Positions 2,290 through 29,741 of a stretch of DNA of 32,000 bases are shown piece by piece. Below the pieces are notes generated by a model. It was given only the letters and a program-made list of their open reading frames with translations, was not told where the DNA came from and did not search any database. Each line of letters begins with the position of its first letter. Position 1 is the stretch's first letter. The translations under genes and the position numbers were made by a program. The stretch is from Nostoc sp. PCC 7120 = FACHB-418. GTDB lineage: Bacteria > Cyanobacteriota > Cyanobacteriia > Cyanobacteriales > Nostocaceae. The DNA lies in assembly GCF_000009705.1 (NCBI RefSeq), contig NC_003272.1:6060001-6092000 (forward strand), in the 5' to 3' direction.

Positions 2290-2317
2290 AATCCTTAATA
2301 GAATACTATTAAGGATT
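2290..2317 (-). terminator. perfect 12-bp inverted repeat hairpin (AATCCTTAATAG aata CTATTAAGGATT), a candidate terminator of the ParM-like operon or a protein-binding palindrome
   Basis: Read directly. It lies about 43 nt downstream of the stop of the 162-aa ORF. On the minus strand it is followed by A/T-rich sequence (ATTAATATTTAT). The stem is AT-rich, so terminator strength is uncertain. Confidence 0.4.
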
Positions 2318-2359: not shown

Positions 2360-2848
2360 TTAAAAATCATCTAGATATTGACTTAAGCGACTAATAACGG
2401 GGTCAACTTCTTCTGTTGACTCAACAGCATAATTAGCAGGGTTTACGACATCTGCTGCTGGTACTGATTGGGGCGGAGAGTAAACCACAGGTCGCTCTGT
2501 CACCACAATTGCGAGGTGCGCCAGTTGTTGCGTCAACTGCAAAATCTGGCGCTCAAGTGATTCCAAGCGATTAGATTCCTTGGCAAAAAAACGTTCCTCA
2601 AGGTCAGCTAGTTGACGTTGCAGTTCATCGATTTTTTGTTCAACCGGCTCTGTTGTAGTTGTTCTGAGAGCTGGTTTTACAGATTCCGGTACGCATAGAG
2701 CTTGCCACAAAGCTTCTTTGCAGAGGTCGCTAAAGGTCTTTTCCGGTTGTTTTTCTAGATAGTTTTCTACAACCGCTAATAAGCTTTCATCAGCGACTTC
2801 TGGGTTGAACGTAACCGATTTAACTACTTTTTTTGACCATTGGAACAT
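2360..2848 (-). CDS. hypothetical protein with a putative N-terminal ribbon-helix-helix-like segment, a central coiled coil and an acidic C-terminal tail (ParR-like adaptor candidate)
   Basis: 162-aa ORF. Its ATG lies 5 nt after the stop of the upstream ParM-like gene, suggesting translational coupling. The N-terminus KSVTFNPEV / ESLLAVVENYLEK / TFSDLCKEALWQAL fits a strand-helix-helix pattern by eye. The heptad-like stretch is EQKIDELQRQLADLEERFFAKESNRLESLERQILQLTQQLAHL. The tail is EEVDPVISRLSQYLDDF. I recognise no family with certainty. Confidence 0.6.
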   Translation of the reverse strand: MFQWSKKVVKSVTFNPEVADESLLAVVENYLEKQPEKTFSDLCKEALWQALCVPESVKPALRTTTTEPVEQKIDELQRQLADLEERFFAKESNRLESLERQILQLTQQLAHLAIVVTERPVVYSPPQSVPAADVVNPANYAVESTEEVDPVISRLSQYLDDF

Positions 2849-2853
2849 TCGTT

Positions 2854-4005
2854 TTAAGCCCTAGCAGCACGATTGGAGGATAATTGGGCCTCTCCATAAA
2901 TATACTGCCCCAAGGCGTTCGCTTGTCTAGAAGGAGCAGCTAAGTGGGCGCTAATCTGGGCATCCTTAAGTAGACGTTGTACATCTTCCCAGAAAAATTC
3001 GCCACCACCACCAGTGATAATCACATCGGTGACACGTTCTGGCAACCAAGCCAACACACGACTGCAAATTTCTCGTGAAAATTGCTCTATCAAGTTGGGC
3101 AGAGAATCATCTAGATTTGTTGGTTTACTAGCACCTTTAGGACGATAAAAGCGTTCGCCTTTGGGTTTGTTGACAGCAGAAATTAAGGCCAAAGACTGAC
3201 TATCTGCACCATCAATTTCGGCAGCTACTAATTCATAGAACTTGTTCATGCCAAAATCTTCACTCTTAGAAGCACCGCGTGCAAAGCGGAAATTATCTAC
3301 CATCAATAAATCAATAGTTTGATGCCCAATATCAACAATTGCTGTGGAGATTTTTGTAAAATCGGGGCTAGCACCACCTTTTTTAGGTTGAGCTTCCGAC
3401 CAGAGAAGACTACCATAGCCTTCTGGCATTACCCAAACCTTGGTGATATTCAAAGATACAGATTCACCTCGAAAATTGAGAACATGAGGCCCGGTGACTT
3501 GGCTAGTTAACTGTGCTTTTTCCCTTTCAAATTGCTCCAACGAGAGAAAAGGTAGACCAAGTACAACAGAAATTTCATCTTTGAGTTTGAAGTAGCCAGC
3601 ACTAGCCAGTACCTTAATTAGTGCATCTTCTACTTTAGATTGACCGACTCCCAAATTAGCCCCAAAGTCTGCTGCTAATTGACCAACGGCATAGCCTTTG
3701 CCTTGATATTCCAACCACAAATCCATTAACGGGTCAGTAGCACGGGCTTCAAAAACGCCCCCGCGTACTTGTTCTATTGACATTTGCTTGACGTTGGCGG
3801 GTACGAACACAACGTTATTGGGTTCGCGTCCGACACAGGTTTTTGTGGAAGTTCTGCCTAAGTCAACACTGAGAATCGATTTGCTCGAACCATTATTTGG
3901 CTTGTTGTTGGCTGGAGCGGCATTGATTGGGGTAGATGCTGACACTCTGTTTAAAGGGATGGCAGCAGCATTCATTGGAGTAGCGGCGGAAGGTTGGTCT
4001 GTCAT
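2854..4005 (-). CDS. ParM/StbA-like actin-fold (ASKHA) ATPase
   Basis: 383-aa ORF with an ATG preceded by GAGGAA. Actin-fold nucleotide-binding motifs occur in the canonical order: phosphate-1 SVDLGRTSTK, phosphate-2 VDIGHQTIDL and adenosine motif VIITGGGGEFF. About 45 aa of Ala/Pro/Asn-rich low-complexity extension precedes the fold. Confidence 0.75.
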   Translation of the reverse strand: MTDQPSAATPMNAAAIPLNRVSASTPINAAPANNKPNNGSSKSILSVDLGRTSTKTCVGREPNNVVFVPANVKQMSIEQVRGGVFEARATDPLMDLWLEYQGKGYAVGQLAADFGANLGVGQSKVEDALIKVLASAGYFKLKDEISVVLGLPFLSLEQFEREKAQLTSQVTGPHVLNFRGESVSLNITKVWVMPEGYGSLLWSEAQPKKGGASPDFTKISTAIVDIGHQTIDLLMVDNFRFARGASKSEDFGMNKFYELVAAEIDGADSQSLALISAVNKPKGERFYRPKGASKPTNLDDSLPNLIEQFSREICSRVLAWLPERVTDVIITGGGGEFFWEDVQRLLKDAQISAHLAAPSRQANALGQYIYGEAQLSSNRAARA

Positions 4006-4226
4006 AAAATTCCTCGTGCTTACTTACCTGTAAAAAGTTATCATGCCCGTCGTACAAACATGGGGGATACCAGAATTTCTGAGTTTCGTCAAGTGTAGCT
4101 ATAAATACGCCAAATTTTAAAATTTTAGTAAAATTTAGGCGATCGCTTCTTCAGCATTATTTGGCATAGTGTAGGCGAATTTTTACCAGATGTAACCCCC
4201 AGTTGTAAACAAAAAAGAACTTTGCT

Positions 4227-4844
4227 TCAAATTCTGGTGTTTCTAAGCTTACGTTTGACTGCCCAGAGTACAAACACCAGAAATAAAGCCCCTAGTACAA
4301 TTTTGGATACAGGGGCAAGGTACTTATCCACAAGTTCATACTGACTACCTAAAAGATACCCTGAGTATGTTAACAAACCAACCCAGGCGGCGCTACCTAA
4401 AGTTGTATAAAATAGAAAAGGTAGCAAGGGCATATTACTGACCCCTGCCGGTACGGAAATTAAAGTCCGAACTCCCGGAATCAGACGACCCATGAAAACC
4501 GCCTTGTTACCTTGAGAGTCAAACCAGCGCTTTGCTTTGGTTATATCTTTGCTAGATACACTAATCCACTTGCCATATTTATCTGCTAAATATCGTAAAC
4601 GCTGTTCACCCAAAAACTTCCCTGGATAATACCAGATAAGTGCGCCAATTGTAGAACCTAAAAGTCCAGCAATAAACACACCTATGATGTTCAGTCTTGA
4701 GCCTGGCAAGTTGGCTGTGTAACCGGCCAATGGCATGATTAATTCTGAAGGAATTGGCGGAAACAGGTTCTCTACAAACATTAAAAGACCAATTCCCCAA
4801 TAACCCAGAGATTCAATAATATTTTTTATCCAGTCGGATGACAT
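4227..4844 (-). CDS. DedA (SNARE-associated/VTT) family membrane protein
   Basis: 205-aa hydrophobic ORF with the DedA signature region FVENLFPPIPSELIMPLAGY and GRLIPGVRTLISVPAG. Confidence 0.85.
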   Translation of the reverse strand: MSSDWIKNIIESLGYWGIGLLMFVENLFPPIPSELIMPLAGYTANLPGSRLNIIGVFIAGLLGSTIGALIWYYPGKFLGEQRLRYLADKYGKWISVSSKDITKAKRWFDSQGNKAVFMGRLIPGVRTLISVPAGVSNMPLLPFLFYTTLGSAAWVGLLTYSGYLLGSQYELVDKYLAPVSKIVLGALFLVFVLWAVKRKLRNTRI

Positions 4845-5124
4845 CTTTTGGGACTGTTGTATTATTTTAGTTGCTAAGTTTAACTCTAGTTTTAGTAAAA
4901 CTTAACAATTTTCCCTTCTTCAAGGTAACAAATTAGGGTCTGGATAGTAAGAGTCTAGCACCAGATGTAGGCTTTTTCGCATGGGTAAAAACGGCTAACG
5001 GTTACTTACTCAATATGTAAGATTAATAACCATGAGCCAAGCATTATAGCCGTCTGACAATTGAAATTCTAATTTTTTAGCTGCGTCAACAGTATGATTT
5101 TATGGCTTAGGCTGATATGCACTG

Positions 5125-9025: not shown

Positions 9026-9140
9026 TTGGGGATTGGCTATTGGGGATTGGGTATTGGGTATTGGTTACTGGGTACTGGGGATTGGGGATGGAATTTATCC
9101 CCTGCTTCCCCTGCTTCCCCTGCTTCCTAGTCCCCAGTCC
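9026..9140. repeat. compound short tandem repeat: nine heptamers (TTGGGGA/TTGGGTA/CTGGGGA, complement of the STRR CCCCAGT type) followed by 3 x CCCCTGCTT and a terminal CCCCAGT unit
   Basis: Heptamer phase read directly at 9026-9088. The nonamer repeats lie at 9099-9125 and CCCCAGT at 9132-9138. The block fills the spacer between two co-directional minus-strand genes. Confidence 0.8.
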
Positions 9141-11379: not shown

Positions 11380-14300
11380 TTACCTTCCTTTCTCCTCCAC
11401 TATTAGTTTCATTTCCGCAGTGCGTCCAAATTCTTCTGGTGCATATTGCAGATGAACTTCCGCACCAGGCCAGGAAAAAGTCCCAGGAGTAACAGAACGT
11501 ACCAAATAATGGAGGCTGTAGACTCCTGGTTCTAGATGGTCGGCATAGGCGATAATGCGATCGCTATAAATATTCCTAAAACCCAGTTCCCAGCTATCGG
11601 CTTTTGCTTGTAATGCGGCGGTGGTAGTTTGGAAACTCGCGTCAACGGCTTCTAAACCTGCTGGTAAGGGGTCTTTAATTACTAGATGATCTACAGGGCG
11701 ATCAACGATGATTTCTAAACCAATATCAAACACTTGTCCGAGGGCTAAAGTCAAGGGTTGATCGAGGGCGTAAATTCCTGTTTTTCGTAAAATTCTCTTT
11801 GCATTTACTTGACTTATTTCTCGTGTTATGCGTAAGCCGTTGAAGCGTCCTGGTTGATTTCCTTGCAGGCGATAGTTATAAGCAACCAAGTAGTGTAGAG
11901 TTCCATTACCTGATTTTTGTAGCGTTAAATCATGACGGCCACGGGGTAATTGATTCATCGGTACACTTAACTGGAGGCTGGGATTTTTATAGCCTGTAAA
12001 GCGATTTTCTCCTAACTTTCTCCCGGCTAACTGCACTGTGGCAACAAAATTAGGTGGCGTGGGTTGTAGTTGACCATATTCTACTAATGCTGTTAGTGCT
12101 TGGGCATTATTATAGTCAGTTTGCCATGTACCATCCCGGCGTAGTGCCAGCAGACTTTGGAGTAATTTATCTATGATTTCCGGTTTACTTTGTTTGGCGA
12201 TAAATAAGCGTAAAGCTTGCGCTTGTGCTGTGGTTGGTGAACTCATCCATCCCCAACTAGGTGGTAAACTAACAACTGCTGTGCGTCCAGTTTCAGATAT
12301 GTTTTGTTGCAGCTTGTTTACTAATTGCTGAGATTCATCTTGCCATTCTGGAAATTGAGATAAGTATCGCGCTAGTTTAATTTGAGTGACTAAATCAAAG
12401 TTGTTACGTTGTTCATAAATATCTGTTAGGAAGGTGTTGCGTTTATCTCCCAGTTCTGATAACGCTATTAAAGCATTAAGTTGTAGTTGCCTTTTGCATA
12501 GTTGCTGTTTGCAAAAATCATATTCTCCGGGGTTGGCGAGAACTTTTTGCAAATAGGTTTTGAGGCGAGATAGCATTCCCGTATCAACTAAATTGGGGAA
12601 GACTTGACTGGCTTTCACTAAGGATTCAACAGAATAAGCAGAAACCCAAGGGTCTGATTTTTCTTGTCCAGGGAAAGCCGCAAAACCACCATCAGAGATT
12701 TGTAGTTTTTGCAATTTTTCGACTGCTAAATTTGCCTGTTGTCTAGAGTTAAATTCAGCAAATGTTTGACCATATTTTTGGGCAATAGTTTGCAGATTAG
12801 TCGCAATGATTAATTGACTTGCAGATGGTTCTGTGAATGGCAAATCATTATCTGTTAATACTTGTTTTGCTGGTGCTTTAATTTCGGGAATCAAAGTACT
12901 CGCCAACTGAATATCTAAACCGCCAGCTTCGGGAAAGGTATTTTTATCAACATTTAAGGGAATCTTGATTTGTTTTTGGCTGACACCAGTCTCAACTATT
13001 TGTTCAGTAATTTCCAATGGCTTGACTTGCAAAGGTAATTCAAAAGCATCGGCTGTACCATTTAGTTGAGTGGTGAAGCGAACTTTACCAACTCCCACAC
13101 TATCCGCCACCATTGGGAAGCGATAGGCTTGAGTTGCAGATTCAGCTTGGGTTTGCAACGTAGTAGTTGTCGGATTTTTACTGTTAAACTTCACAGCCCC
13201 GCTAATTTCACCGTTAATTGAGAGATTTCCTGTATTTCCGGTGTTATTAGTTACGGATAAACCAGCGAGGATGCGATCGCCTGGACGGACAAATTGTGGC
13301 AAGATGGCATTACTTAGTAGTGGTTTGGTGGTGATAAATGTCGCGTCTCCATTGCCAAAACGCAGGTTTCCATCTGTAGCCACAGCCATCACACGCCAAG
13401 TAGTCAAATCATCTGGTAATTTGACGGTTATCTGTGCATTACCGCTAGCATCGGTCAGAACAGAACCGTTGTAGTAAGCTAAGGGTTGAAAGTCGGTGCG
13501 GGTGCGAGTATTTGCTGCACCTGTGGAGAAGCCACCACCGTAACCCCAGCCTTTAGGTTTTGCGACATCTTGCGGTTGTAATATCACATCTGGACGGTTA
13601 TCAGTAAAGCGGGTAGATATTGGCTGTTCTGCATAAACAGTATCTACTAAATTCGGCGGACGATAACCAGAAAGTTGCAGTACCGCCTCATTTACCACCA
13701 TGACTGTTAACTGTCCTTTGGTGGGATTACCTTGATTGTCCTTCACTTCCAGTTGGATTGTTTCCTCTGCACCAGGTTCTAGTGATGCTTGTGCTGGCTT
13801 AACTTGCAGTTTTAAATATTTATCTTCCAGGTTAACTTTAAAAGGAGTAAAGCCAATTTTTACCAAGTTATCTAAACTTCCTACTTCCACTTGGTTAATA
13901 GGTTTACCTTGTCTAACTAACACAGCTTCAACGGCTGCATTTGGTAGCATTTCTGGCGTAACCCGAAACTGAATTTGTGGTGCGCTACCCTGTACTTTGG
14001 TAATTTGTTGATAAATGGGTTTATCTTTAATCACTGCAAAGTATAATTCTGCATCTGCATAGGGAGATTGAATTAAGGCGGTAGCAGTTTCACCAGCTTT
14101 ATACTCTTTTTTATCTAACTTAACTTCTAAAACATCTTTATCTCGCGTACCCCAAAAGACTGCATTTCCTCCAGTTACCCAAATTTGTGAATCTGTAGCA
14201 CCTAATTCATTTTTGGCATCACTAAAATTAACTCTAATTCGATATGTACCAGATTCAGGTGGGGTTAAATTTACCGATTGCGGATTACTAGTAGATGTAA

Positions 14301-17100
14301 TTTCTGTTTGGGCGACTGTTTTATATTCAACTTGATTTTTTGGCGTTTGGCTACCTTCTACCAATTGAGTGACGCTGCTGTATTTTATCTGTTGCAATTC
14401 CAGTCGGACTCGTTGACCTGTGATTAGTTTTCCAGTAGGGTCAGCAATAATCACTTCAATGGGAAAAGCCTTACCTGCATCAGCAATAAAATTACTTTTT
14501 AAACCGATTAAACGATTACTTGGTAAAGCTGTAAAACTTTGAGAATTGGCTACAGAAAGATTAGAGACATCAGCAACTTGTACATCTACTCGATAAGTCA
14601 TAGGATATGGTAAATCTTTAGCCACATTTACCATTTGGCTACTTTTATCATTACCATCTAACTGAGAATTACTTTGCAATACATCACTAGATATAGTGGG
14701 GGCTTCTTCCGGCCAAAACCATTGGCGACCAAAAGTAAACTCTTCCCAACCTTTAGGGATAAAATTAGCTTGTTGACGAGTAATAAAATATTTCGCTTCT
14801 CCACCTTCTACAGGCGCACCAAATAAATAATTGCTTGTAGCATTAATATCAACATCATCGCCAATATAAGCAAACTCTTTATCTAGCTTGACTTCGACTT
14901 TAAAATTAGGTGGTTTGAACTCAGCCACCCGAAATTCTCCAGAAATTTCCAGACCATTCTTGCCTTTAGCTTGAATTGTGTAGTAGCCTAAGCCTTGAGT
15001 TTTATTGATGGGCATTTCTAAAGAAAATGTCCCAAACTCATTTGTAGTTTGTGTCCCTAAACTGGTCTTTTGTCCATCAGGATTTACCAACGTTATTTGG
15101 TAGTCAGCGTTTTTATCTTGCTGTATGACACCATTTTGTAAGTAATCAGCAAAACCAGTAAACCAAGCTTTTTCTCCTGATTGATACAACTGTCTATCTG
15201 AAAAAATTACTCCCCTTGATTCCGGTTTATTCCCTTGCCAACCTGCATCAATACCATATCCATAAACACCGCTATATTCTTCAGTTCTAGTAAATGCCCA
15301 ATCTTCCTTTTCACTGGCAATTACTAATAATTCTGGTGATTTAATAGAATTTTGACTACCAGCAGTGCATTGCTGTAATGCTTCACGATTAACTCTAAAA
15401 GTCCCATTTTCATCGGTTTTACCTGTCGCACAAGGTACAGGTTCAGGGCGAGATTTTGCTTGCAATTTTGATTGATAAATTTCTATAACAGCCGCTTTTA
15501 CTGGCGCACCATCTGTTAAATGATTCACCCGAATTAATCCCGATTCAGGAAACCATTGACTAAATACACCCAAATTAGTCAATTCCACCAAACCATAAGT
15601 CGTAGGTTCTCGCCACAACTCTTTACCATTTTCCTGATATTTATTAGTACGGGCTTGGACTCCATAAGCTAACATTCCCGTCTTAGCGTTGATTTTTTCT
15701 CGCAAAGGTACAGTTACATCAACTGACTGATTTTTCTTACCTGATACCTGGAAGCTTTTCCATTCAGCAGGTTTTGGTAATAAATCATTACCGTAGTTAA
15801 AATAAACCAAATCTGTTGGTTTAACTACTCGATAAGCAGCCTGATATTTAGATTCTGGTAAATTTACAGTACTAATATTTAACCGTAAATCTTTACCTGC
15901 GGGAAAAATATTCAAGTCTGAGGGAACCCAGATATCCCCTGCTAAATCTCCAGTATCATATTTAAGTGAAACAGGTTTACCTAAAGTCTGTCCAAACTTA
16001 TCTTGGAGATTTTCGCCGATAGTAATTGTATAAGTCTTAGCTGGTTCTAAGGCATAAGGATTAATCCCGATAATTCTATCTTCATCATTAACTTGTAAAA
16101 GTCGAGAAATATCTTTTGGTGCTGGGTTAATTTTAATATTGGTTTTAGCTGATTCAGCCACCAATATATTATTAAATTCTAACTGCGGACTACCTTTAAT
16201 AAATCTTCCATAAGTTCCCCCTGCATCTGGTTGTCCATAAAAGTTAATTTTTTGAAAAGCCAAAGGCGAATAAGTTGACAACTTACTAACAAATTCTCTA
16301 TCTGTAACTAGGTTGCCATAAGCAGGACGTATTCCCGGAGAGAATACTAAACGGTAACGAGTAGCTGTTTTCAGATTTTTTTGAGGTCTGAGATTATAAA
16401 TCCAATTACGTGCTGAAGGGTCAAATTTCTTGAGAGGTTCTTCCTTATCTAGAGGTTTTTCTTCCTTGTTTAAGGTTACTTGGAAACGCAAACCCTCATT
16501 TTTACCTTCTGGGATTAGCTGTAAATGTTCTTGTACAGAAGCTAAATCTAGTTCTACATTAGATGTAAATTGTAACTTTGGCTGTAAATCAATAGGTTCA
16601 GCATCAGCTTTCTCAATCGGATTCACACCGGGTAAATTTGTTAAATTGATAGATTGAGTATTAAAAGTCCAAGATAAATCTTTGTCTAAACGATGATTTT
16701 TTAAATCTGCTAAACCTGCTTTGAGAGTAACTTGTAATCTTGTGGCTATTGGCAATGCTTTATCAGCTTGAAAACCTACCATGCGCGGTGTCAAAAAACG
16801 AAATTGTCCCGGTAATGGCGGCCAAAGGGCAAACTTTTGTAATAACTGCTGTTGTTCTGGACTGTCTAGACTTTCAACTGGTATTAAAGCCTCTTTAAAA
16901 CGAATACGGATTTGGTTCAGAGGTTGGGCTTCTCCGATGGGACTAATTTGTTCAATCCAGTCCGGTAATTTTGGCGGTGTGAGTGGGGAAACTGCTGGTA
17001 ATGGTTCCCTACCTGAGTTGATACCAAAAAAATTACATCCCCCTATTCCTAACACCAACGTTAGAACAATAAAACACCGTATACAGACTCTAATAATCAT
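11380..17100 (-). CDS. bacterial alpha-2-macroglobulin family lipoprotein (YfhM/ECAM-like architecture, no CxEQ thioester motif)
   Basis: 1906-aa ORF. The N-terminal signal peptide has a lipobox-like LGIGGC. Macroglobulin-family hallmarks include LPDDLTTWRVMAVATD, FVRPGD, the TED-like ISDGGFAAFPG and the C-terminal DPLPAGLEAVD. The size matches bacterial A2Ms and the gene is divergent from pbpC. Cysteines occur only in the signal region, PVPCATG, QQCTAG and DFCKQQLCKR. Confidence 0.9.
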   Translation of the reverse strand: MIIRVCIRCFIVLTLVLGIGGCNFFGINSGREPLPAVSPLTPPKLPDWIEQISPIGEAQPLNQIRIRFKEALIPVESLDSPEQQQLLQKFALWPPLPGQFRFLTPRMVGFQADKALPIATRLQVTLKAGLADLKNHRLDKDLSWTFNTQSINLTNLPGVNPIEKADAEPIDLQPKLQFTSNVELDLASVQEHLQLIPEGKNEGLRFQVTLNKEEKPLDKEEPLKKFDPSARNWIYNLRPQKNLKTATRYRLVFSPGIRPAYGNLVTDREFVSKLSTYSPLAFQKINFYGQPDAGGTYGRFIKGSPQLEFNNILVAESAKTNIKINPAPKDISRLLQVNDEDRIIGINPYALEPAKTYTITIGENLQDKFGQTLGKPVSLKYDTGDLAGDIWVPSDLNIFPAGKDLRLNISTVNLPESKYQAAYRVVKPTDLVYFNYGNDLLPKPAEWKSFQVSGKKNQSVDVTVPLREKINAKTGMLAYGVQARTNKYQENGKELWREPTTYGLVELTNLGVFSQWFPESGLIRVNHLTDGAPVKAAVIEIYQSKLQAKSRPEPVPCATGKTDENGTFRVNREALQQCTAGSQNSIKSPELLVIASEKEDWAFTRTEEYSGVYGYGIDAGWQGNKPESRGVIFSDRQLYQSGEKAWFTGFADYLQNGVIQQDKNADYQITLVNPDGQKTSLGTQTTNEFGTFSLEMPINKTQGLGYYTIQAKGKNGLEISGEFRVAEFKPPNFKVEVKLDKEFAYIGDDVDINATSNYLFGAPVEGGEAKYFITRQQANFIPKGWEEFTFGRQWFWPEEAPTISSDVLQSNSQLDGNDKSSQMVNVAKDLPYPMTYRVDVQVADVSNLSVANSQSFTALPSNRLIGLKSNFIADAGKAFPIEVIIADPTGKLITGQRVRLELQQIKYSSVTQLVEGSQTPKNQVEYKTVAQTEITSTSNPQSVNLTPPESGTYRIRVNFSDAKNELGATDSQIWVTGGNAVFWGTRDKDVLEVKLDKKEYKAGETATALIQSPYADAELYFAVIKDKPIYQQITKVQGSAPQIQFRVTPEMLPNAAVEAVLVRQGKPINQVEVGSLDNLVKIGFTPFKVNLEDKYLKLQVKPAQASLEPGAEETIQLEVKDNQGNPTKGQLTVMVVNEAVLQLSGYRPPNLVDTVYAEQPISTRFTDNRPDVILQPQDVAKPKGWGYGGGFSTGAANTRTRTDFQPLAYYNGSVLTDASGNAQITVKLPDDLTTWRVMAVATDGNLRFGNGDATFITTKPLLSNAILPQFVRPGDRILAGLSVTNNTGNTGNLSINGEISGAVKFNSKNPTTTTLQTQAESATQAYRFPMVADSVGVGKVRFTTQLNGTADAFELPLQVKPLEITEQIVETGVSQKQIKIPLNVDKNTFPEAGGLDIQLASTLIPEIKAPAKQVLTDNDLPFTEPSASQLIIATNLQTIAQKYGQTFAEFNSRQQANLAVEKLQKLQISDGGFAAFPGQEKSDPWVSAYSVESLVKASQVFPNLVDTGMLSRLKTYLQKVLANPGEYDFCKQQLCKRQLQLNALIALSELGDKRNTFLTDIYEQRNNFDLVTQIKLARYLSQFPEWQDESQQLVNKLQQNISETGRTAVVSLPPSWGWMSSPTTAQAQALRLFIAKQSKPEIIDKLLQSLLALRRDGTWQTDYNNAQALTALVEYGQLQPTPPNFVATVQLAGRKLGENRFTGYKNPSLQLSVPMNQLPRGRHDLTLQKSGNGTLHYLVAYNYRLQGNQPGRFNGLRITREISQVNAKRILRKTGIYALDQPLTLALGQVFDIGLEIIVDRPVDHLVIKDPLPAGLEAVDASFQTTTAALQAKADSWELGFRNIYSDRIIAYADHLEPGVYSLHYLVRSVTPGTFSWPGAEVHLQYAPEEFGRTAEMKLIVEEKGR

Positions 17101-17380
17101 ATTTTTATAAATTTAAGATTAAAAATTACAGCAACTAGTCTCATCCCACCTCTCTTAAAATCTGCGCCCCTCCGCGCCAACCCCCACACTCCTTTGGATT
17201 TAAAAATCAAAATTTATTTACATAGATAACCAATCAAAAGCAGTAATTCCAAAAAACAACTACAATTCTTAACTATGAATTATTTTTAATTTTATTATTA
17301 AGGAATAGACATACTTACTGATGTAGATATCATCGCCACGGCAAAATTAAAGTAAATTCTCTTAAACAGGGTACTCCCTG

Positions 17381-19672
17381 ATGCAATTCATATCTCTATC
17401 GCTTACCAGAATGCGGCACACTAGTAAGGTGATCATAGCTGTGCTGCTAATATGCTTATTAATCCGCTTGATACCTTATTTTGCGCCGATTCGTGCTGTA
17501 GATATTGCCCAAAATCAACTAGCAATGCAATTTAGCGATCGCAATGGGCTACCATTAGGAACAATACTCACCCGTGACCAAGAGCATACATCAGTAGTAC
17601 CACTAAATCAGATTTCGCCCCAATTTATCCAAGCTATTTTAGCCGCCGAAGATGGTAGTTTTTATCATCATGGGGCTTTGGACTTGAAAGCAATTGTCCG
17701 CGCCATCAAAGAAGCTATCCACGCCAAAAAAATTGTTTCCGGCGCTTCCACGATTACCATGCAGTTAGCGCGGATGTTAGAACCAGTACCCCGCAACCTG
17801 TCAGGGAAAATGCAGGAGATTTGGTTAGCGTGGCGGTTAGCAGCCGGGATGAACAAGAATGAAATCCTCTCTGCATACATCAATCGCTTGCCCATGGGAG
17901 GGAATATATATGGTGTAGAAGCAGCAGCCCGTACTTATTTTTCCATCCCAGCCAGTGAATTAAATCTTGCCCAAGCTAGTTTGTTAGCTGCCATTCCTAA
18001 TAACCCCACCTACTTTAACCCTTACGAACATTGGGAACGACTGAAGCAACGACAAAAATACGTCCTCAATCGTATGGTACAAGAAGGGTATGTGAGCAAA
18101 GACACAGCATATCGCACATCCTCAGAAAAAGTTGTGTTTCAGTCCAACCAGCGAGGAATTATCGCCGCACCACACTTTTTATTTTGGTTAGCTAATCAAA
18201 TTCCCCCCACTCCTGCTGACACAAATCAATCAGTTATCCACACAACTATCAATCGTCCTTTGCAGCAATTTGTCGAAGCACAAGTACAGCAGGTAATTTC
18301 TACTCTTTCCGCCAATAACGTTCATGATGCAGCCGCACTAGTAATTGACAACCACACAGGGGAAGTTTTAGCTTACGTCGGTTCACCGGATTACTTTAAT
18401 CAAGCCCAACTGGGACGCAATGACGGAGTGCAAGCCCTACGTCAACCAGGTTCTACCCTGAAGCCATTTGTCTATGAATTAGCATTAGAAAAGCGGTTAA
18501 TTCGCCCAAATACTATTTTGGCAGATGTCCCGACCCATTACGCCATCCCCGGCGCACAACTCTACAGCCCAACGGATTATACCGAAAACTTTCTTGGGCC
18601 TGTGCGGGTACGCATCGCCTTAGCCAATTCCCTCAATATACCAGCCGTACGCGTCTTGGAAAAAGTGAGTGTACCAACTTTCCTAGAACGTCTACATCAA
18701 CTGGGATTTGTCCATCTAAAACAAACCCCAGAATACTATGGCTTAGGTTTAACCCTGGGTAGTGGTGAAGTTAGCCTCTGGGAACTAGCCCAAGCCTACC
18801 TGACTATAGCAAGACAAGGACAACCCGCCCCCCTCATTACCACCCTTCCCCAGTCTCCAGTCCCCCATCATACCCAACCCCCAAACCCCACCATCTGGCA
18901 ATTAATCACCAACATCCTCAGCGACAGCCATGCTCGTGCTACAGCCTTCGGTGTAGATTCAGTATTAAACTTACCATTCCCCGTGGCTGTGAAAACCGGT
19001 ACATCTTCCAACTATCGTGACACTTGGACAGTCGGCTTTACCACTGATTACACCGTCGCTACCTGGGTAGGTAACTTTAACGGTGAACCCATGCGTCAAG
19101 TTTCCGGGGTGACAGGCGCAGCACCCTTGTGGAATCGGATTATGTTACATCTGCACGAATATCAAGAACCAGCCAGTTTTCTCACTCCAGCAGGTTTATT
19201 GCAACTACCAATCTGTGCAGTTTCTGGGTTACGTCCCACACCAGACTGTACTTCAGTGGTGCAAGAATATTTCTATCCCGAAGATAAAACTAGCTACGAA
19301 AGGGACACTCAGTTTACATTACCACCAGAGTATAACGAGTGGTTAGCCACGCAACAGCGATCGCAGTTTACCTCTAGCAGCCTGAGAATTTTATCTCCTC
19401 ATGAAGGCGATGTATTCTTAGTGTATCCAGGTGAAGAAACACAACAAAAATTAGAATTTAAGTTAATAGGAAATAACTCTACACCTATAGAGTGGTGGCT
19501 CAACGGTGAAAAATTGAACACCCAGTCAGCTAATTCCTTATTTTGGTCGCTGCGTCCTGGTAACTGGACTTTAGAGGCGAGAAGCGGTGAAATGAGCGAT
19601 AAGGTAAAATTCCAGGTGAAACGGGCAAGTATTAAACCGACACGTAGGGGTTTCTCGATTGGTAATTCTTAA
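17381..19672 (+). CDS. pbpC: penicillin-binding protein 1C (bifunctional GT51 glycosyltransferase / transpeptidase)
   Basis: 763-aa ORF. GT51 motifs are EDGSFYHHGALD and GASTITMQLAR. Transpeptidase motifs are STLK (SxxK), SLN (SxN) and KTGTS (KTG). The C-terminal extension is typical of PBP1C, and the gene sits next to an alpha-2-macroglobulin gene. The start could alternatively be the Met at 17411. Confidence 0.9.
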   Translation: MQFISLSLTRMRHTSKVIIAVLLICLLIRLIPYFAPIRAVDIAQNQLAMQFSDRNGLPLGTILTRDQEHTSVVPLNQISPQFIQAILAAEDGSFYHHGALDLKAIVRAIKEAIHAKKIVSGASTITMQLARMLEPVPRNLSGKMQEIWLAWRLAAGMNKNEILSAYINRLPMGGNIYGVEAAARTYFSIPASELNLAQASLLAAIPNNPTYFNPYEHWERLKQRQKYVLNRMVQEGYVSKDTAYRTSSEKVVFQSNQRGIIAAPHFLFWLANQIPPTPADTNQSVIHTTINRPLQQFVEAQVQQVISTLSANNVHDAAALVIDNHTGEVLAYVGSPDYFNQAQLGRNDGVQALRQPGSTLKPFVYELALEKRLIRPNTILADVPTHYAIPGAQLYSPTDYTENFLGPVRVRIALANSLNIPAVRVLEKVSVPTFLERLHQLGFVHLKQTPEYYGLGLTLGSGEVSLWELAQAYLTIARQGQPAPLITTLPQSPVPHHTQPPNPTIWQLITNILSDSHARATAFGVDSVLNLPFPVAVKTGTSSNYRDTWTVGFTTDYTVATWVGNFNGEPMRQVSGVTGAAPLWNRIMLHLHEYQEPASFLTPAGLLQLPICAVSGLRPTPDCTSVVQEYFYPEDKTSYERDTQFTLPPEYNEWLATQQRSQFTSSSLRILSPHEGDVFLVYPGEETQQKLEFKLIGNNSTPIEWWLNGEKLNTQSANSLFWSLRPGNWTLEARSGEMSDKVKFQVKRASIKPTRRGFSIGNS

Positions 19673-22133: not shown

Positions 22134-24623
22134 CTAAAGTTCACTTTTGGCAAGAGATGCACAGGTGAATGACGGTTGCACACCTGTAGGAGATTTAGCG
22201 GCAAAAAGCTCAATTTTTCCTTGGGCGTTACGATGCCAAGATGTAGCGTGGACAAAAACTTTTGGAGATTCAAGTATTTGGGCTTGTAAAGCTGGCGTTT
22301 TGTGGAATGCAGAGATATCGCGGATGTCAGACCAAGGGCGATCGCTCCTCACTTCCTGCATAGGATTTTGTGGGACACCACCCCGTCCTGTAGCGACAAA
22401 ACTACTATTATTAGTATTAGAACAGCCTGTAGCAATTTGTTGGGATGAGTCTGAGAGATTTGTTGGTAAATCTATTAAACCAGAATTAGGATCAATGCCA
22501 ACATTATTAATTTGGACTGTACCACTAACACTGAATTGGGAACTTGCGGTAATATCATTGCTCAAAACCTCTCTTGGATTGAGAAGATTACGGTACTCCA
22601 AACCGATAATTCCCTGAGTTGTGATTTGAATATTGCCCCCCTTTCCTTGTACGGCGTTGGCAATAATGTCACTATTTTCTAGACCAATCACAATGGGAGA
22701 GTTAATATTAATGTTGCCACCATTGCCATTACTACCTGCTTCGGCATTGATCAAGCTACCACGACGCATCAATAATACATCCCGCAGTTGCAGATTGATA
22801 TTGCCCCCCTCTCCAGCTTTTTTAGATGCTAGGATACTTGCATTATTGTCAAGTTTGAGGACGTTGGCATTAATTTGCAGAGTACCAGCCGTACCCAAAC
22901 CAGAATTTTCTACAAAAACCGTTGCCCCATTGGTAACATTCAAAACAGGAGTGTTTATGGTGGTGTTACCTGCATTAGCACGGGAAATTTGGGCAAATGT
23001 ACCAAAAGGACGCACAGCCGTACCGATATAGCTGGGATTGTTTGCATCCTTTACGCCATTTACATCAATCGATTCGGAAGCATTAATATTGAGTACACCA
23101 GCATTACCTAAAATTATGCTAGAAGCAGACACTCTCCCGCCAGCTTGCACTGACAATTTACGAGTATCAATCGCCAAATTTCCCGCATTACCAGACCCAA
23201 ATGTGGCAGTAGAGATGAGACTAAAATAAAAACCAGTGGGAGTTCCAGTGTTATTTACTTCAATAGTATCCGCCTTCACCGTCACATCACCCCCACTACC
23301 CACACCATAGGGTCTGGCTGCTATATTTCCCCCAGCTAAAACAGACAGCTTTTGAGTAGAGACAGAAATATTGCCGCCTTTCCCGCCTGCATAGGAAGCA
23401 GCTAATATTTGACTAACTGCTCGAAAGGCTGAAGGATCACCAACTGCAAAACCATTAACCCGCGTTTCATCGGTGTTGACGATAATATTGCCCCCTGATG
23501 CTGTGCTGAAAGTCCGGTTATAAATATAACCACCCTGATCAATATTCAATCGTGGAGTGTTAATGATAATATTCCCCGCCGCACCCAAGGCTGTACTTTC
23601 ATTCACTAAACTGCTAGAACTTTGAAAATCAGGCGACTTGCCAGTAATTTCTAAAAACTCTGAAGCATCAACAGCAATATCACCAGCTGTCTTTTGACTG
23701 CGATTTTGTACTAATATCATCGAGCCATCGCGGATACTGACTCGTTTTCCCTGGATATGGATGGCTCCTCCACTTTCCCCATTTAAATCCCGTGTCGATG
23801 CTAAGGCTCGTTGGGTGATTTGAATATTGCCAAAACTGGGAACTTGAGAATACTGGAAGGCAAATCCTTGCGGAGTAGAATTGAGAATCACATTGCCATT
23901 AGTCACACCACCCAATTCTATTAGTCCTCCTGGTGCAGAGAGCAGTCCGCCATCTAAGGCAATATCTTTGCCTAATAACGCTAGTGTTTTCCCTGGTTGT
24001 AGTTGTAATCCTCTGGAATTGAGATTTAGTCCAGAAACTTGCACTGAGTCACTTAATTGGGCATTATGTCCTGTACCTTGAACTGTAATCCCTCCTTGAT
24101 TACTACCAAATTGCAACCCAACAGGTACATTCATGGTTAACAAGGGGGATGTGTTGGTGTCTGTGCTACTAAATTTACTCCCATCCGCAAATGTAATAGT
24201 CTCAGCAGTTGTCCCGACAAATGATCCACCAATATTTAAACTGGCATGAGAACCAAAAATTATTCCTGTGGGGTTAAGTAAAAATAGATTGGCGCTGCCA
24301 TTAGTTTGAATCAAACCATCAATATTGGAAACATTACCACCAGTCACACGACTAAAAATATTTTGAATACTTGTAGGATTGTCAAATAATACAGAATCAC
24401 TTGTAGGGATAGAGAACTGACTAAAACTATGAAATAAATTATTGCCGACACGAGTACCGTTGGTAATGTTGTAAATATTACTTCCATTCACGGAAGTAGT
24501 GGCAGTAACAGAAGTATTGAGGGTATTATCTTGAGTTACTTGGGCATGAACACTATTGTTACAAACAGCAGATAAACAGATTACACTAAGCACGCCAAAC
24601 CCAACAAAAGTTAATTTCATCAA
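22134..24623 (-). CDS. TpsA-like exoprotein, paralog 1: filamentous-haemagglutinin N-terminal (TPS) domain, beta-helix repeats and a conserved C-terminal module
   Basis: 829 aa. The signal peptide ends in VHAQV. TPS-domain motifs are GNNLFHSFSQFSI and ANLFLLNPTGIIFG. Gly/Asn-rich repeats include GGNI.I and GNAGN. The C-terminal module is shared with the three neighbours. Confidence 0.88.
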   Translation of the reverse strand: MMKLTFVGFGVLSVICLSAVCNNSVHAQVTQDNTLNTSVTATTSVNGSNIYNITNGTRVGNNLFHSFSQFSIPTSDSVLFDNPTSIQNIFSRVTGGNVSNIDGLIQTNGSANLFLLNPTGIIFGSHASLNIGGSFVGTTAETITFADGSKFSSTDTNTSPLLTMNVPVGLQFGSNQGGITVQGTGHNAQLSDSVQVSGLNLNSRGLQLQPGKTLALLGKDIALDGGLLSAPGGLIELGGVTNGNVILNSTPQGFAFQYSQVPSFGNIQITQRALASTRDLNGESGGAIHIQGKRVSIRDGSMILVQNRSQKTAGDIAVDASEFLEITGKSPDFQSSSSLVNESTALGAAGNIIINTPRLNIDQGGYIYNRTFSTASGGNIIVNTDETRVNGFAVGDPSAFRAVSQILAASYAGGKGGNISVSTQKLSVLAGGNIAARPYGVGSGGDVTVKADTIEVNNTGTPTGFYFSLISTATFGSGNAGNLAIDTRKLSVQAGGRVSASSIILGNAGVLNINASESIDVNGVKDANNPSYIGTAVRPFGTFAQISRANAGNTTINTPVLNVTNGATVFVENSGLGTAGTLQINANVLKLDNNASILASKKAGEGGNINLQLRDVLLMRRGSLINAEAGSNGNGGNININSPIVIGLENSDIIANAVQGKGGNIQITTQGIIGLEYRNLLNPREVLSNDITASSQFSVSGTVQINNVGIDPNSGLIDLPTNLSDSSQQIATGCSNTNNSSFVATGRGGVPQNPMQEVRSDRPWSDIRDISAFHKTPALQAQILESPKVFVHATSWHRNAQGKIELFAAKSPTGVQPSFTCASLAKSEL

Positions 24624-24683
24624 TCAAGTTCTTGTTTTTATTACGTATCTATTGTTCCCAATTGAGTAAATTTGTAACGTTAA

Positions 24684-27161
24684 TTAATTTTCGGCTACAG
24701 CAGCACAGGTTAAGGCTGTTTGCATCTGCGAAGGGGATTTAGCTGCAACCAACTCTATTTTGCCTTGGGCATTACGTCGCCAGAAAGTAGCTTGTAAAAG
24801 GAATTTTGGGGATTTCGGTGTTTGGGCCTGTACTGGTTGTGTTGTATGGTATGCAGAGAGATCGCGGATATCAGACCAAGTGCGATCGCTCCTCAATTCC
24901 TGAGAAGGATTTTGTGGTATCCCACCCCGTCCTGTAGCGACAAAACTACTACCTTGGTTGACATCACAACCACTAGCAATTTGTTGAGATGAATCACTGA
25001 GATTTGCTGGTAGTTCAATTAAACCAGAATTGGGGTCAACACCAACATTATTAATTTCCACATTGCCGTTGAGATTGAATTGAGAACTGGCGGTAATATC
25101 ATTGGTGAGGTCATCTTTGGGGGTGAGGGTGTTACGAAATTCTAGACCAATAATGCCTTGGGTAGTGATGTCGATATTGCCACCATTTCCTTGCACTGCA
25201 TTGGCAATGATATCGCTATTTTCTAGACCAATCACATTGGGTGAGTTAATGTTAATGTTGCCACCATTGCCATTACTACCTGCTTCGGCATTGATAAAGC
25301 TACCTTGACGCATCAATAATACATCCCGCAGTTGTAGATTGATGTTACCGCCTTCCCCTGCTTTTGTAGATGCCGAAAGACTACCACCATTGTCAAGATG
25401 TAAGGTGTTTGCGTTAATTCTTAAAGTGCCGGCATCACCTAGAATCTGGTTTTGGGTAAAAACTTGTCCCTGGTTGCGAACGGTTAATTGAGGCGTATTG
25501 ATGGTGATATTACCGGCTTTGGCAGTAGAGTTGCTATTATTACTGATACCAGAAGTTGTAAACACAGTTAATGGACGGGCGATCGCTCCAATATAGCTAG
25601 GATTTTGTGGGTCTTTGATTCCATTTACATCAATTGATTCAGTGGCATTAATCGTCAGGTTGCCAGCGTTGCCAAAGTTTACAGTCGAAACTGAAACTAA
25701 ACCGCCATCTTGAATCGACAGTTTGCGCGTATTAAGCTGAAGATTGCCAGCATTCCCAGAGCCAAAAGTATTAGCTGATAACAGACTAATTAAATAAGAC
25801 CCTGGGAGGGTATTTAAGCTTGATATATCAACAGTGTCAGCACTGATTTTAACGTTGCCACCATTACCTGTAAGAAAGCTTCTCGTACCGACATTACCAC
25901 CACCAAAAATTGACAGGCGATCGCTAGAAAGCAATAAATCTCCACTTTGACCTTTACCATAAGTTGCAGCCATCAGCACGCCAAATATCGGATTAGCACT
26001 AGGATTCCCCGGTTGAATCCCACCCACTAAAACTTCATTGGCTTTAACTACGACATTACCACTGGGTGCTGAACTATAGGTACGGTTAATCATGATCGCA
26101 CCTCGATCAATGGTGAGTTTTGGGGTGATAATAGCAATATTTCCTGCTGCTCCTGCTTGCAGAGTTTCATTGACGATACCACTGGAACTTTGAAAGTTTG
26201 AGGACATACCTATCACTTGCAACGACTCTGTGGCATTGATTGTAATATCACCCGCAGTCTGGCTACCGAGATTTTGTACTACCACCAAAGAACCGTCTTG
26301 AAGACTGATTTGTTTTCCCTGAACTTGTATTGCGCCTGGAATGATGCCACGCACAGATGCTATAGCACGTCGGCTCATTTGAATATCACCAAAGCTATAG
26401 TTGTCACGAGGATAGCTCAGGGTGAATGCTGAAGAATCGACATTGATATTGACATCGCCTTGATTGACGCTTCCCAGTTCAATGCGTCCTCCTGGTGCGG
26501 ACAGAAAGCTCCCATTGAGGACAAGATTACCACCAACCAAAGCTAGTGTTTTTCCAGATGATAGCTGTAACCCATCGGTACTGGTTAATCCCGAAATCGG
26601 AGATATACCATTTAATATGTGATTGTTTCCTGTTCCCTCAACAGAAATAGTTCCTGGATTGCCGCCAAACTGTAATCCGATTGGGACACTCATAGTCAAT
26701 AAAGGAGTTGTATTGGTTTTAACTCCGCTAAATTCTGTCCCATCAGCAAACTTAATACTATTGGCTGTTGTACCAATAAACGAACCACCAATATTCAAAC
26801 TGGCATCTTTACCAAATATGATTCCACTAGGGTTGAGTAAAAATAAATTTGCAGTACCGTTAGCTTGAATTAAACCATCAATGTTGGAAACACTACCACC
26901 AGTCACACGGCTAAAAATATTTTGGATATCTGGGGCATTGTCGAAGAGTGCAGAACCTTTACTGGGAATAGAAAATTGACTGAAACTGTGAAACAGATTG
27001 TTCCCGACGCGATTCCCATTGATAATGGTGAAATCATTACCACTTTGAGAGACTTCAGTGTTGAGAGTGCTGTCAGGAATGACTTGGGCATTAACACTGC
27101 TGCAAGTTGAACATATTAAGATTCCGCCAATTAAACCAAAGCAACCAGAAGTTACTTTCAT
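24684..27161 (-). CDS. TpsA-like exoprotein, paralog 2
   Basis: 825 aa. The signal peptide ends in VNAQV. Motifs GNNLFHSFSQFSI and ANLFLLNPSGIIFG are present, with beta-helix repeats and the conserved C-terminal module (AGEGGNINLQLRDVLLMR ... GRGGIPQNP ... TCAAV). Confidence 0.88.
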   Translation of the reverse strand: MKVTSGCFGLIGGILICSTCSSVNAQVIPDSTLNTEVSQSGNDFTIINGNRVGNNLFHSFSQFSIPSKGSALFDNAPDIQNIFSRVTGGSVSNIDGLIQANGTANLFLLNPSGIIFGKDASLNIGGSFIGTTANSIKFADGTEFSGVKTNTTPLLTMSVPIGLQFGGNPGTISVEGTGNNHILNGISPISGLTSTDGLQLSSGKTLALVGGNLVLNGSFLSAPGGRIELGSVNQGDVNINVDSSAFTLSYPRDNYSFGDIQMSRRAIASVRGIIPGAIQVQGKQISLQDGSLVVVQNLGSQTAGDITINATESLQVIGMSSNFQSSSGIVNETLQAGAAGNIAIITPKLTIDRGAIMINRTYSSAPSGNVVVKANEVLVGGIQPGNPSANPIFGVLMAATYGKGQSGDLLLSSDRLSIFGGGNVGTRSFLTGNGGNVKISADTVDISSLNTLPGSYLISLLSANTFGSGNAGNLQLNTRKLSIQDGGLVSVSTVNFGNAGNLTINATESIDVNGIKDPQNPSYIGAIARPLTVFTTSGISNNSNSTAKAGNITINTPQLTVRNQGQVFTQNQILGDAGTLRINANTLHLDNGGSLSASTKAGEGGNINLQLRDVLLMRQGSFINAEAGSNGNGGNININSPNVIGLENSDIIANAVQGNGGNIDITTQGIIGLEFRNTLTPKDDLTNDITASSQFNLNGNVEINNVGVDPNSGLIELPANLSDSSQQIASGCDVNQGSSFVATGRGGIPQNPSQELRSDRTWSDIRDLSAYHTTQPVQAQTPKSPKFLLQATFWRRNAQGKIELVAAKSPSQMQTALTCAAVAEN

Positions 27162-27241
27162 TACCCCAACTCCATTAAAATTGTAGCCTTAGGATGCCCT
27201 GAATATTTTTTTACTAACGCTTCAAGTGAACTGCTTAAAAC

Positions 27242-29689: not shown

Positions 29690-29741
29690 TAGTCTAGTTC
29701 TTGTTTCTATTACGTATATATTATTCCCAGCTTAGTAAACT

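Follow-up and report, generated by a model that had tools for sequence, protein, structure and literature searches.

The 32,000-nucleotide (nt) stretch of the Anabaena/Nostoc sp. PCC 7120 chromosome analyzed here (contig NC_003272.1, positions 6,060,001 to 6,092,000; the window, numbered from its first letter) carries two adjacent genes on the minus strand, corM and corR. According to the list of open reading frames (ORFs), corM is a 383-amino-acid (aa) ORF with an ATG start at 2854..4005, and corR is a 162-aa ORF, also with an ATG start, at 2360..2848. The TAA stop codon of corM is followed by a 5-nt gap (AACGA) and then by the ATG of corR, the same spacing given in a preliminary description of this DNA, which had been prepared from the letters alone and had read the genes as a ParMR-like pair. 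The product of corM (fcmB, all5091) is a ParM-derived actin-like ATPase forming cortical filaments, as judged from the ORF, Pfam and NCBIfam matches, and identity to a deposited structure. The product of corR (fcmC, all5090) is a ParR-derived membrane adaptor of CorM, as judged from the ORF, an NCBIfam match, an exact sequence match, its homologues, and its adjacency to corM.

All 383 of the 383 CorM residues were identical to the chains of PDB 9RMI, the entry name of which is "CorM". Against the NCBIfam equivalog FcmB ("Filament morphology actin-like protein FcmB", NF052678), CorM scored 746.4 bits (cut-off, 300), with a match spanning aa 1-375 and profile positions 1-373 of 373. CorR scored 235.7 bits (cut-off, 90) against the equivalog FcmC ("Filament morphology membrane protein FcmC", NF052682), with a match spanning aa 5-162 and profile positions 1-159 of 159. 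An exact-sequence look-up identified CorR as BAB76789.1 (all5090), and all5091 was present in the CorM cluster as an older, short annotation. The sequence accessions tied to the locus were PDB 9RMI, WP_044522477.1, and WP_010999216.1. The pair is almost certainly the corM-corR (fcmB-fcmC, all5091-all5090) operon of this chromosome, and no evidence contradicts its identification as CorMR/FcmBC. With equally high confidence, it can be read as a plasmid-partition module of type II (ParMR) that an ancestor of filamentous cyanobacteria took into its chromosome and that has since become a cortical cytoskeleton.

Architecture and conservation of CorM and CorR

Pfam matched ALP_N (1.1e-18; aa 47-198) and MreB-like_C (1.3e-08; aa 223-340) in CorM. 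The three actin-fold motifs named in the preliminary description were located within these matches, all on the minus strand: the phosphate-1 motif DLGRTSTK (aa 48-55; 3841..3864) lies inside ALP_N, and the phosphate-2 motif DIGHQTID (aa 225-232; 3310..3333) and adenosine motif ITGGGGEF (aa 330-337; 2995..3018) lie inside MreB-like_C. The Ala/Pro/Asn-rich N-terminal extension that had been pointed out was also confirmed, as the first 40 residues (A9 N7 P6) precede the ALP_N match starting at aa 47. Its composition, together with published cryo-electron microscopy (cryo-EM), identified aa 1-40 (3886..4005, minus strand) as an intrinsically disordered region. In the preprint describing CorM, this segment had no cryo-EM density, and its deletion raised ATPase activity and pelleting and gave a mutant phenotype (bioRxiv 10.1101/2025.06.27.661541).

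In the original PCC 7120 annotation, all5091 (GenBank accession number BAB76790.1) is only 318 aa long and starts 65 codons downstream, a start with which the DLGRTSTK phosphate-1 motif would be lost. The 383-aa start is correct; it is used by both RefSeq and PDB 9RMI and is preceded by GAGGA.

The CorM family is sharply bounded, with 16 proteins below an E value of 1e-30 among 1.84 billion 50%-identity representatives. Outside the CorM cluster and the paralogues closest to it, identity drops to 25-30%, the ordinary ParM range, and identity of CorM to plasmid ParMs was 24-29%. The score against the ParM equivalog PRK13917 was 59.6 bits, with a cut-off of 417, and the match to the PRTRC-D NCBIfam model was likewise weak. 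No MreB model was found among the NCBIfam matches of CorM, and the only MreB-related Pfam match was the generic "archaeal actin homologue MreB-like" C-terminal domain. Searches of CorM and CorR with the PADLOC defense models returned nothing meaningful.

CorR can be divided into five successive parts, all on the minus strand. The first is a cationic amphipathic helix, MFQWSKKVVK (aa 1-10; 2819..2848), which acts as the N-terminal membrane anchor and was recognized from conservation, hydrophobic moment, an AlphaFold2 (AF2) model, and a deletion reported in the preprint; the preliminary description had overlooked it. There follows a ribbon-helix-helix (RHH)-like domain (aa 11-54; 2687..2818) consisting of the strand-forming VTFNP and two helices, delimited from AF2, conservation, and the prediction in the preprint. 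A long helix or coiled coil (aa 66-117; 2498..2653; "H5a" in the preprint) with an AF2 predicted local distance difference test (pLDDT) score of 75-84 leads into a variable, disordered linker (aa 118-148; 2405..2497) marked by low pLDDT and by indels among homologues. The protein ends in an acidic amphipathic helix, DPVISRLSQYLDDF (aa 149-162; 2363..2404; "H5b"), which is the CorM-binding peptide, is backed by the same four kinds of evidence as the anchor, and had been singled out as a tail of this type in the preliminary description. The hydrophobic moment was 0.58 for the N-terminal 11 residues (net charge, +3; shuffle p 0.044) and 0.57-0.68 for the C-terminal helix (net charge, -2; shuffle p 0.011). 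The AF2 monomer, with a mean pLDDT of 60, contained helices at aa 6-11, 21-33, 39-52, 66-117, and 150-161; pLDDT was approximately 70-76 for the second and third of these and <50 for aa 119-147. The heptad a/d register was modest (60% hydrophobic versus a background of 40%).

There were 442 CorR homologues, and among the matches listed, the named ones were from Nostocales or other cyanobacteria. Across 27 diverse homologues, MFQWSKKVVK was invariant in 27/27, and the termini as a whole (MFQWSKKVVK.VTFNP and DP.ISRLS..LDDF) were invariant or nearly so, with a middle part (approximately aa 118-147) that varied in length and sequence and carried indels. Invariant ends around a variable middle fit two functional termini joined by a spacer.

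An RHH-like N terminus followed by a long coiled coil had also been proposed. The layout was seen in the AF2 model, and the preprint describes an (RHH)2 arrangement, but the fold itself found no match: Pfam returned only sub-threshold coiled-coil noise for CorR and no RHH family, a profile of the CorR N-terminal domain matched no RHH protein among PDB sequences, and Foldseek with the low-confidence monomer model (pLDDT 60) gave no meaningful match. The predicted helices after VTFNP are compatible with a beta-alpha-alpha unit in which the strand would pair only in the dimer, and the putative RHH assignment rests on this topology and on the AlphaFold3 dimer of the preprint.

Relatives of CorM were collected as 498 stretches in a scan of one genome per species, and locus counts were taken from the best 80, all Nostocales-like. 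In 80/80 loci, a corR homologue came directly after corM, with gene order and spacing unchanged, so the pair is not a chance arrangement of ORFs, and the expected co-occurrence of the two genes across genomes was borne out. Both ORFs were intact in all 80 loci, where CorM was 87-99% identical, and codon positions 1, 2, and 3 of corM were conserved at 92%, 96%, and 59%, respectively, the pattern expected of purifying selection.

Function of the pair and competing explanations

Springstein et al. (bioRxiv 10.1101/2025.06.27.661541) described CorMR as a chromosomal ParMR pair in Anabaena sp. PCC 7120, with no parC-like repeats and an actin carrying a 40-aa N-terminal disordered region. CorR was presented as an (RHH)2-type adaptor that lacks helices H3 and H4, has a split H5, and binds CorM through its C-terminal helix. 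Deletion of corMR gave enlarged, swollen, rounded cells with normal DNA distribution, and deletion of corR or loss of either CorR terminus reproduced the full-deletion phenotype. CorM hydrolyzed ATP and formed dynamically unstable, ATP-dependent filaments, which by cryo-EM were antiparallel, unstaggered, left-handed double filaments (PDB 9RMI). The amphipathic helix at CorR aa 1-10 bound vesicles, and its deletion abolished vesicle binding; deletion of aa 150-162 abolished CorM recruitment, and binding was shown by two-hybrid and co-pelleting assays. In electrophoretic mobility shift assays (EMSA), CorR shifted neither the corMR promoter nor R1 parC. MinC competed with CorR and depolymerized CorM at the poles, clearing both the poles and the division plane of filaments, and guidance of peptidoglycan synthesis by CorM was proposed only (all bioRxiv 10.1101/2025.06.27.661541).

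The orthologues FcmB and FcmC were identified in Nostoc punctiforme via transposon mutagenesis by Nguyen et al. (mSphere 2025, PMC12645912). Loss of fcmBC abolished the rod shape and left DNA distribution normal, and FcmB formed membrane-bound circumferential filaments in an FcmC-dependent manner. An FcmB-FcmC interaction was detected, and an FcmB-MreB interaction was not. The genes were found in filamentous, not unicellular, cyanobacteria, and their origin was placed in a plasmid-partition actin clade (PMC12645912). Among older comparative papers, Stucken et al. 2010 include all5091 in a gene table under "Filament Formation", and Gupta and Mathews 2010 list all5090 as a clade signature protein.

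The system is thus already known. The novelty implied by the preliminary description fails because the pair was published in 2025, and the window adds no new biology on the conversion of a partition module into a cytoskeleton. What had been read from the letters alone was nevertheless the correct architecture and class of function: the preference for a host cytoskeletal role over plasmid partition has been shown experimentally in both 2025 papers, and the suggested docking of a small adaptor onto a ParM-like actin through an acidic C-terminal helix agrees with the loss of CorM recruitment in the aa 150-162 deletion. The analogy to a DNA-binding adaptor did not survive, as EMSA was negative and CorR binds membrane via aa 1-10 instead. 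CorMR/FcmBC stands, from genetics, reconstitution, and cryo-EM, as a plasmid DNA-segregation machine turned cell-shape cytoskeleton in multicellular cyanobacteria, and the current database names "plasmid segregation centromere-binding protein ParR" and "ParM/StbA family protein" give a misleading idea of function in this clade.

In the mechanism shown in the literature, CorR binds the membrane via its N-terminal amphipathic helix (aa 1-10) and recruits CorM via its C-terminal helix (aa 150-162). CorM polymerizes with ATP into cortical antiparallel double filaments, which MinC keeps off the poles and the division plane. The filaments may in turn guide peptidoglycan synthesis, a step suggested by the MreB-like phenotype.

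Were CorMR instead a working type II (ParMRC) DNA segregation system for the chromosome or a plasmid, CorR would use its RHH domain to bind a centromere, with CorM filaments driving the DNA copies apart. CorM does belong to the ParM/Alp superfamily, with weak ParM and PRTRC-D NCBIfam matches, the database names of the proteins remain ParM and ParR, and CorR retains, at its N terminus, an RHH-like layout and, at its C terminus, a ParM-binding helix like that of ParR; EMSA, moreover, covered two DNA fragments only. The surroundings and the phenotypes speak otherwise. No iteron or centromere-like array was found upstream, in agreement with the preprint: no multi-copy direct-repeat family resembling parC iterons was present in 3900-4900, including the 221-nt region upstream of corM, where the sole tandem repeat reported by Tandem Repeats Finder was AAATTTTA x2. 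EMSA was negative on both the corMR promoter and R1 parC, nucleoid distribution was normal in deletion mutants of two species, the filaments are cortical and membrane-bound rather than attached to DNA, and the score against the ParM equivalog is far under its cut-off. A present role in DNA segregation is therefore judged very unlikely. For the DNA tested, CorR is a membrane adaptor and not a DNA adaptor, and it is improbable, if somewhat less so, that its RHH-like domain still binds some chromosomal site.

Two further explanations would deny the pair its cytoskeletal role altogether. The first is that the pair is what remains of an integrated plasmid partition cassette, now in decay and without any cellular role. 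In its favor are the plasmid ancestry of the system and the ParM genes, at 24-29% identity, found on many cyanobacterial plasmids. However, the intact ORFs in 80/80 loci, the codon pattern of purifying selection, the invariant CorR termini, the syntenic housekeeping context without mobile-element genes, and the deletion phenotypes in two species are at odds with decay; the conservation and the knock-out phenotypes effectively refute this explanation, and its probability is accordingly minute. Lower still, practically nil, is the probability that CorM is a non-polymerizing enzyme or chaperone of the acetate and sugar kinase/heat shock cognate/actin (ASKHA) superfamily (a sugar kinase or an Hsp70- or PilM-like protein) lying beside a coiled-coil protein by chance. 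The sole point in its favor is that the motifs are common to the whole superfamily; Pfam gave ALP_N and actin-like C-terminal domains and no kinase, Hsp70, or PilM family. This alternative had been raised in the preliminary description for the large ORF, and the ALP_N match, the FcmB equivalog match, and identity to the cryo-EM filament structure 9RMI rule it out.

Four points limit the reading of CorMR as a former partition module turned cortical cytoskeleton. The mechanism is drawn chiefly from a preprint, both 2025 papers only infer the link to peptidoglycan synthesis, DNA binding by CorR is excluded for two DNA fragments only, and the RHH fold of CorR was unconfirmed by the PDB profile search, Pfam, and Foldseek.

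Upstream region, relatives, and other features of the window

Two small leads arose beyond the published system: a conserved region upstream of corMR, and anchor-fused plasmid CorM paralogues that are mis-annotated as short ParM proteins. The upstream region (4006..4200, minus strand), aligned from 79 distinct Nostocales sequences, is likely to be a conserved promoter or operator plus 5′ leader. Over approximately 190 nt, most columns were conserved at ≥90%. The alignment separated block A (4137-4200), with the sigma-70-like hexamers GTTACA-17-TACACT and the site GCGATCGC, from block B (4006-4117), with GTATTTATAGCTAC and the Shine-Dalgarno sequence GAGGA, to which the block extends; the spacer between them (4118-4136) is variable and carries insertions in some genomes. 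The palindrome GCGATCGC is presumably the cyanobacterial HIP1 repeat. Within block B, GTATTT.TAGCTAC was invariant (GTA-N8-TAC; 4095-4108). In a fast alignment, blocks A and B were approximately 79% identical, compared with 59% for corM third codon positions and 39% for the intergenic sequence downstream of corR.

The arrangement GTA-N8-TAC is what we take to be the NtcA consensus, and GTATTTATAGCTAC fits it. An NtcA site was not accepted here, since the 6 GTA-N8-TAC occurrences in the window match chance (6.13 expected) and a canonical TAN3T box is missing 22 nt downstream; it is a lead only. A structured RNA or riboswitch upstream of corM was also rejected, as Rfam gave no match, either at its gathering threshold or with E values of up to 1. 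RNAalifold gave -1.57 kcal/mol with no covarying pair for the upstream region, and the single-sequence fold had a z of -0.30. The corMR promoter has been reported as active and toxic in E. coli (bioRxiv 10.1101/2025.06.27.661541; PMC12645912). Beyond this activity and toxicity, the conserved upstream blocks are undescribed in the CorMR and FcmBC papers.

The pair lies between a DedA gene and a phosphohexomutase gene, as the preliminary description had stated, and no mobile-element genes were found among the flanking genes. The upstream neighbor of corM encodes a DedA/VTT-domain membrane protein (4227-4844, minus strand; PF09335), and a phosphogluco/phosphomannomutase gene lies downstream of corR (669-2105). 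Further neighbors encode Ham1, a GFO/IDH/MocA oxidoreductase, QueC, and a CNNM/CorC transporter. Downstream of corR, a consensus scan identified a terminator-like hairpin with a 12-bp stem and T-rich tail (2290..2317, minus strand), which is a pattern match only. The DedA/VTT gene was kept in 77-78 of the 80 loci. A functional link between DedA and corMR through lipid-carrier recycling was considered and dropped: the outer genes GFO (78/80) and QueC (74/80) were kept equally, and three loci without DedA retained GFO-corM-corR. The adjacency of DedA reflects shared descent, because the outer genes are kept as often.

Three more distant relatives, P0176, P0182, and P0190 (44%, 32%, and 30% identity to CorM, respectively), were considered as CorMR beyond Nostocales and rejected, as they lay in unrelated, mobile-looking contexts with no CorR or DedA. 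They are other ParM-like lineages, not CorMR of Oscillatoriales. A CorM relative at 44% identity (368 aa) was found on contig JAAHGI010000054.1 of a cyanobacterial metagenome-assembled genome (3163-5808 in locus L088). A gene 224 nt further downstream encodes a 158-aa protein whose N terminus is acidic, whose middle is helical, and which has a transmembrane segment at its C terminus. With this tail-anchored layout, the reverse of CorR in polarity, the protein may be another membrane adaptor for a ParM-like actin.

Searches with CorM and CorR by tblastn against 72,556 plasmid records identified four Nostocales plasmid records that carry a CorM paralogue, 71-80% identical over CorM aa 45-377. 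No match to CorR was obtained in any of the 72,556 records, and no CorR-like gene was found after the plasmid paralogues. In the three records examined (3494-5020 in L081, 3140-5041 in L082, and 3512-5041 in L083; plasmids NZ_CP026684, NZ_CP043059, and NC_007410), the frame stayed open for at least 143 codons ahead of the start annotated in RefSeq, and the encoded proteins are 508, 509, and 633 aa long; RefSeq lists these as 356-368-aa ParM/StbA proteins. The extension consists of a Gly/Ala-rich, hydrophobic, transmembrane-like segment (Kyte-Doolittle 2.0-2.4 over 19 residues) and a coiled coil of variable length, with the actin domain following in frame. Its ratio of nonsynonymous to synonymous substitution rates was 0.20, versus 0.24 for the actin core, indicating purifying selection, and full-length fusions of 627 and 499 aa were present as called proteins in the representative library. 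A CorR-like origin of the anchor was rejected, as no similarity was detected (E value, 0.85).

The preprint describes the CorM clade as chromosome-only (bioRxiv 10.1101/2025.06.27.661541), and the anchor-fused paralogues are undescribed in both the CorMR and the FcmBC papers. That the CorM lineage is neither purely chromosomal nor always CorR-dependent is conceivable, although we lean slightly against it. If functional, the paralogues would tether actin filaments directly to the membrane, a second, independent, and adaptor-free solution.

For the extension alone, 29 homologues were found (111-245 aa), and YtxH matched some of them weakly. The standalone anchor gene (150-245 aa) was usually preceded by a gene for a conserved protein of approximately 335-375 aa, and the third partner of the module varied, being a dynamin-like GTPase, a WD40/TPR protein, a split CorM-like actin gene, or none. 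Such modules (3979-7844 in L084, 3948-7156 in L086, 4001-5519 in L092, 2971-4534 in L093, and 2839-4639 in L094) often lay beside toxin-antitoxin genes. PADLOC gave weak matches only, to the candidate system PDC-M09 and to LeoBC, and the module may be an uncharacterized accessory or defense-like one.

Elsewhere in the window, a 1906-aa bacterial alpha-2-macroglobulin (A2M) with MG2, bait region, A2M, and bMG10 domains is encoded at 11380-17100 on the minus strand. Divergent to it, at 17381-19672 on the plus strand, lies a gene for a class A penicillin-binding protein with a PBP1C-type C-terminal domain (BiPBP_C). We take these genes (11380-19672) to be the well-known A2M-PBP1C pairing, and no evidence connecting them to corMR was found here. 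Four tandem paralogues (829, 825, 815, and 729 aa) at 22134-31931 on the minus strand each carry an N-terminal two-partner-secretion (TPS), hemagglutinin-like domain. The match of the fourth begins at profile position 136, which may reflect a wrongly set start or a truncated gene; within the window, no transporter partner of the TPS proteins was identified. Intergenic heptanucleotide tandem arrays were AGTCAAC x5.9 at 595-635 and TTGGGTA x8.7 at 9026-9086. The first is presumably a rotation of the short tandemly repeated repetitive (STRR)-type heptamer CAACAGT described for Anabaena/Nostoc.

Comparison with known systems

The closest counterpart is CorMR of Anabaena sp. PCC 7120 itself, which is the same locus without any difference in the genes, with a CorR of the same length and published deletion boundaries that match the conserved termini found here. 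FcmB/FcmC of Nostoc punctiforme are orthologous and share the gene order, the chromosomal location, and the rounded-cell phenotype; the species and the names differ.

With ParMRC of plasmid R1, CorMR shares ancestry, the order of an actin-like ATPase gene and then a small adaptor gene, an adaptor C-terminal helix that binds the actin, and dynamic instability of the filaments. However, identity is only approximately 20-30%, and corMR is chromosomal and without parC. Unlike R1 ParR, CorR binds membrane and not the DNA tested, and it adds an amphipathic helix, a long helix, and a linker. CorM differs from R1 ParM in its 40-aa disordered region, its antiparallel rather than polar filaments, and its use of ATP only.

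MreB resembles CorM in its actin fold, in its membrane-associated, antiparallel, double circumferential filaments, and in the rounding of cells upon its loss. CorM is nevertheless not an MreB paralogue but comes from the plasmid-partition clade, and no FcmB-MreB interaction was detected; its filaments are also twisted, dynamically unstable, and attached via a separate adaptor. AlfA and Alp7A, in turn, differ from CorMR as plasmid-borne DNA-segregation systems with DNA-binding adaptors.

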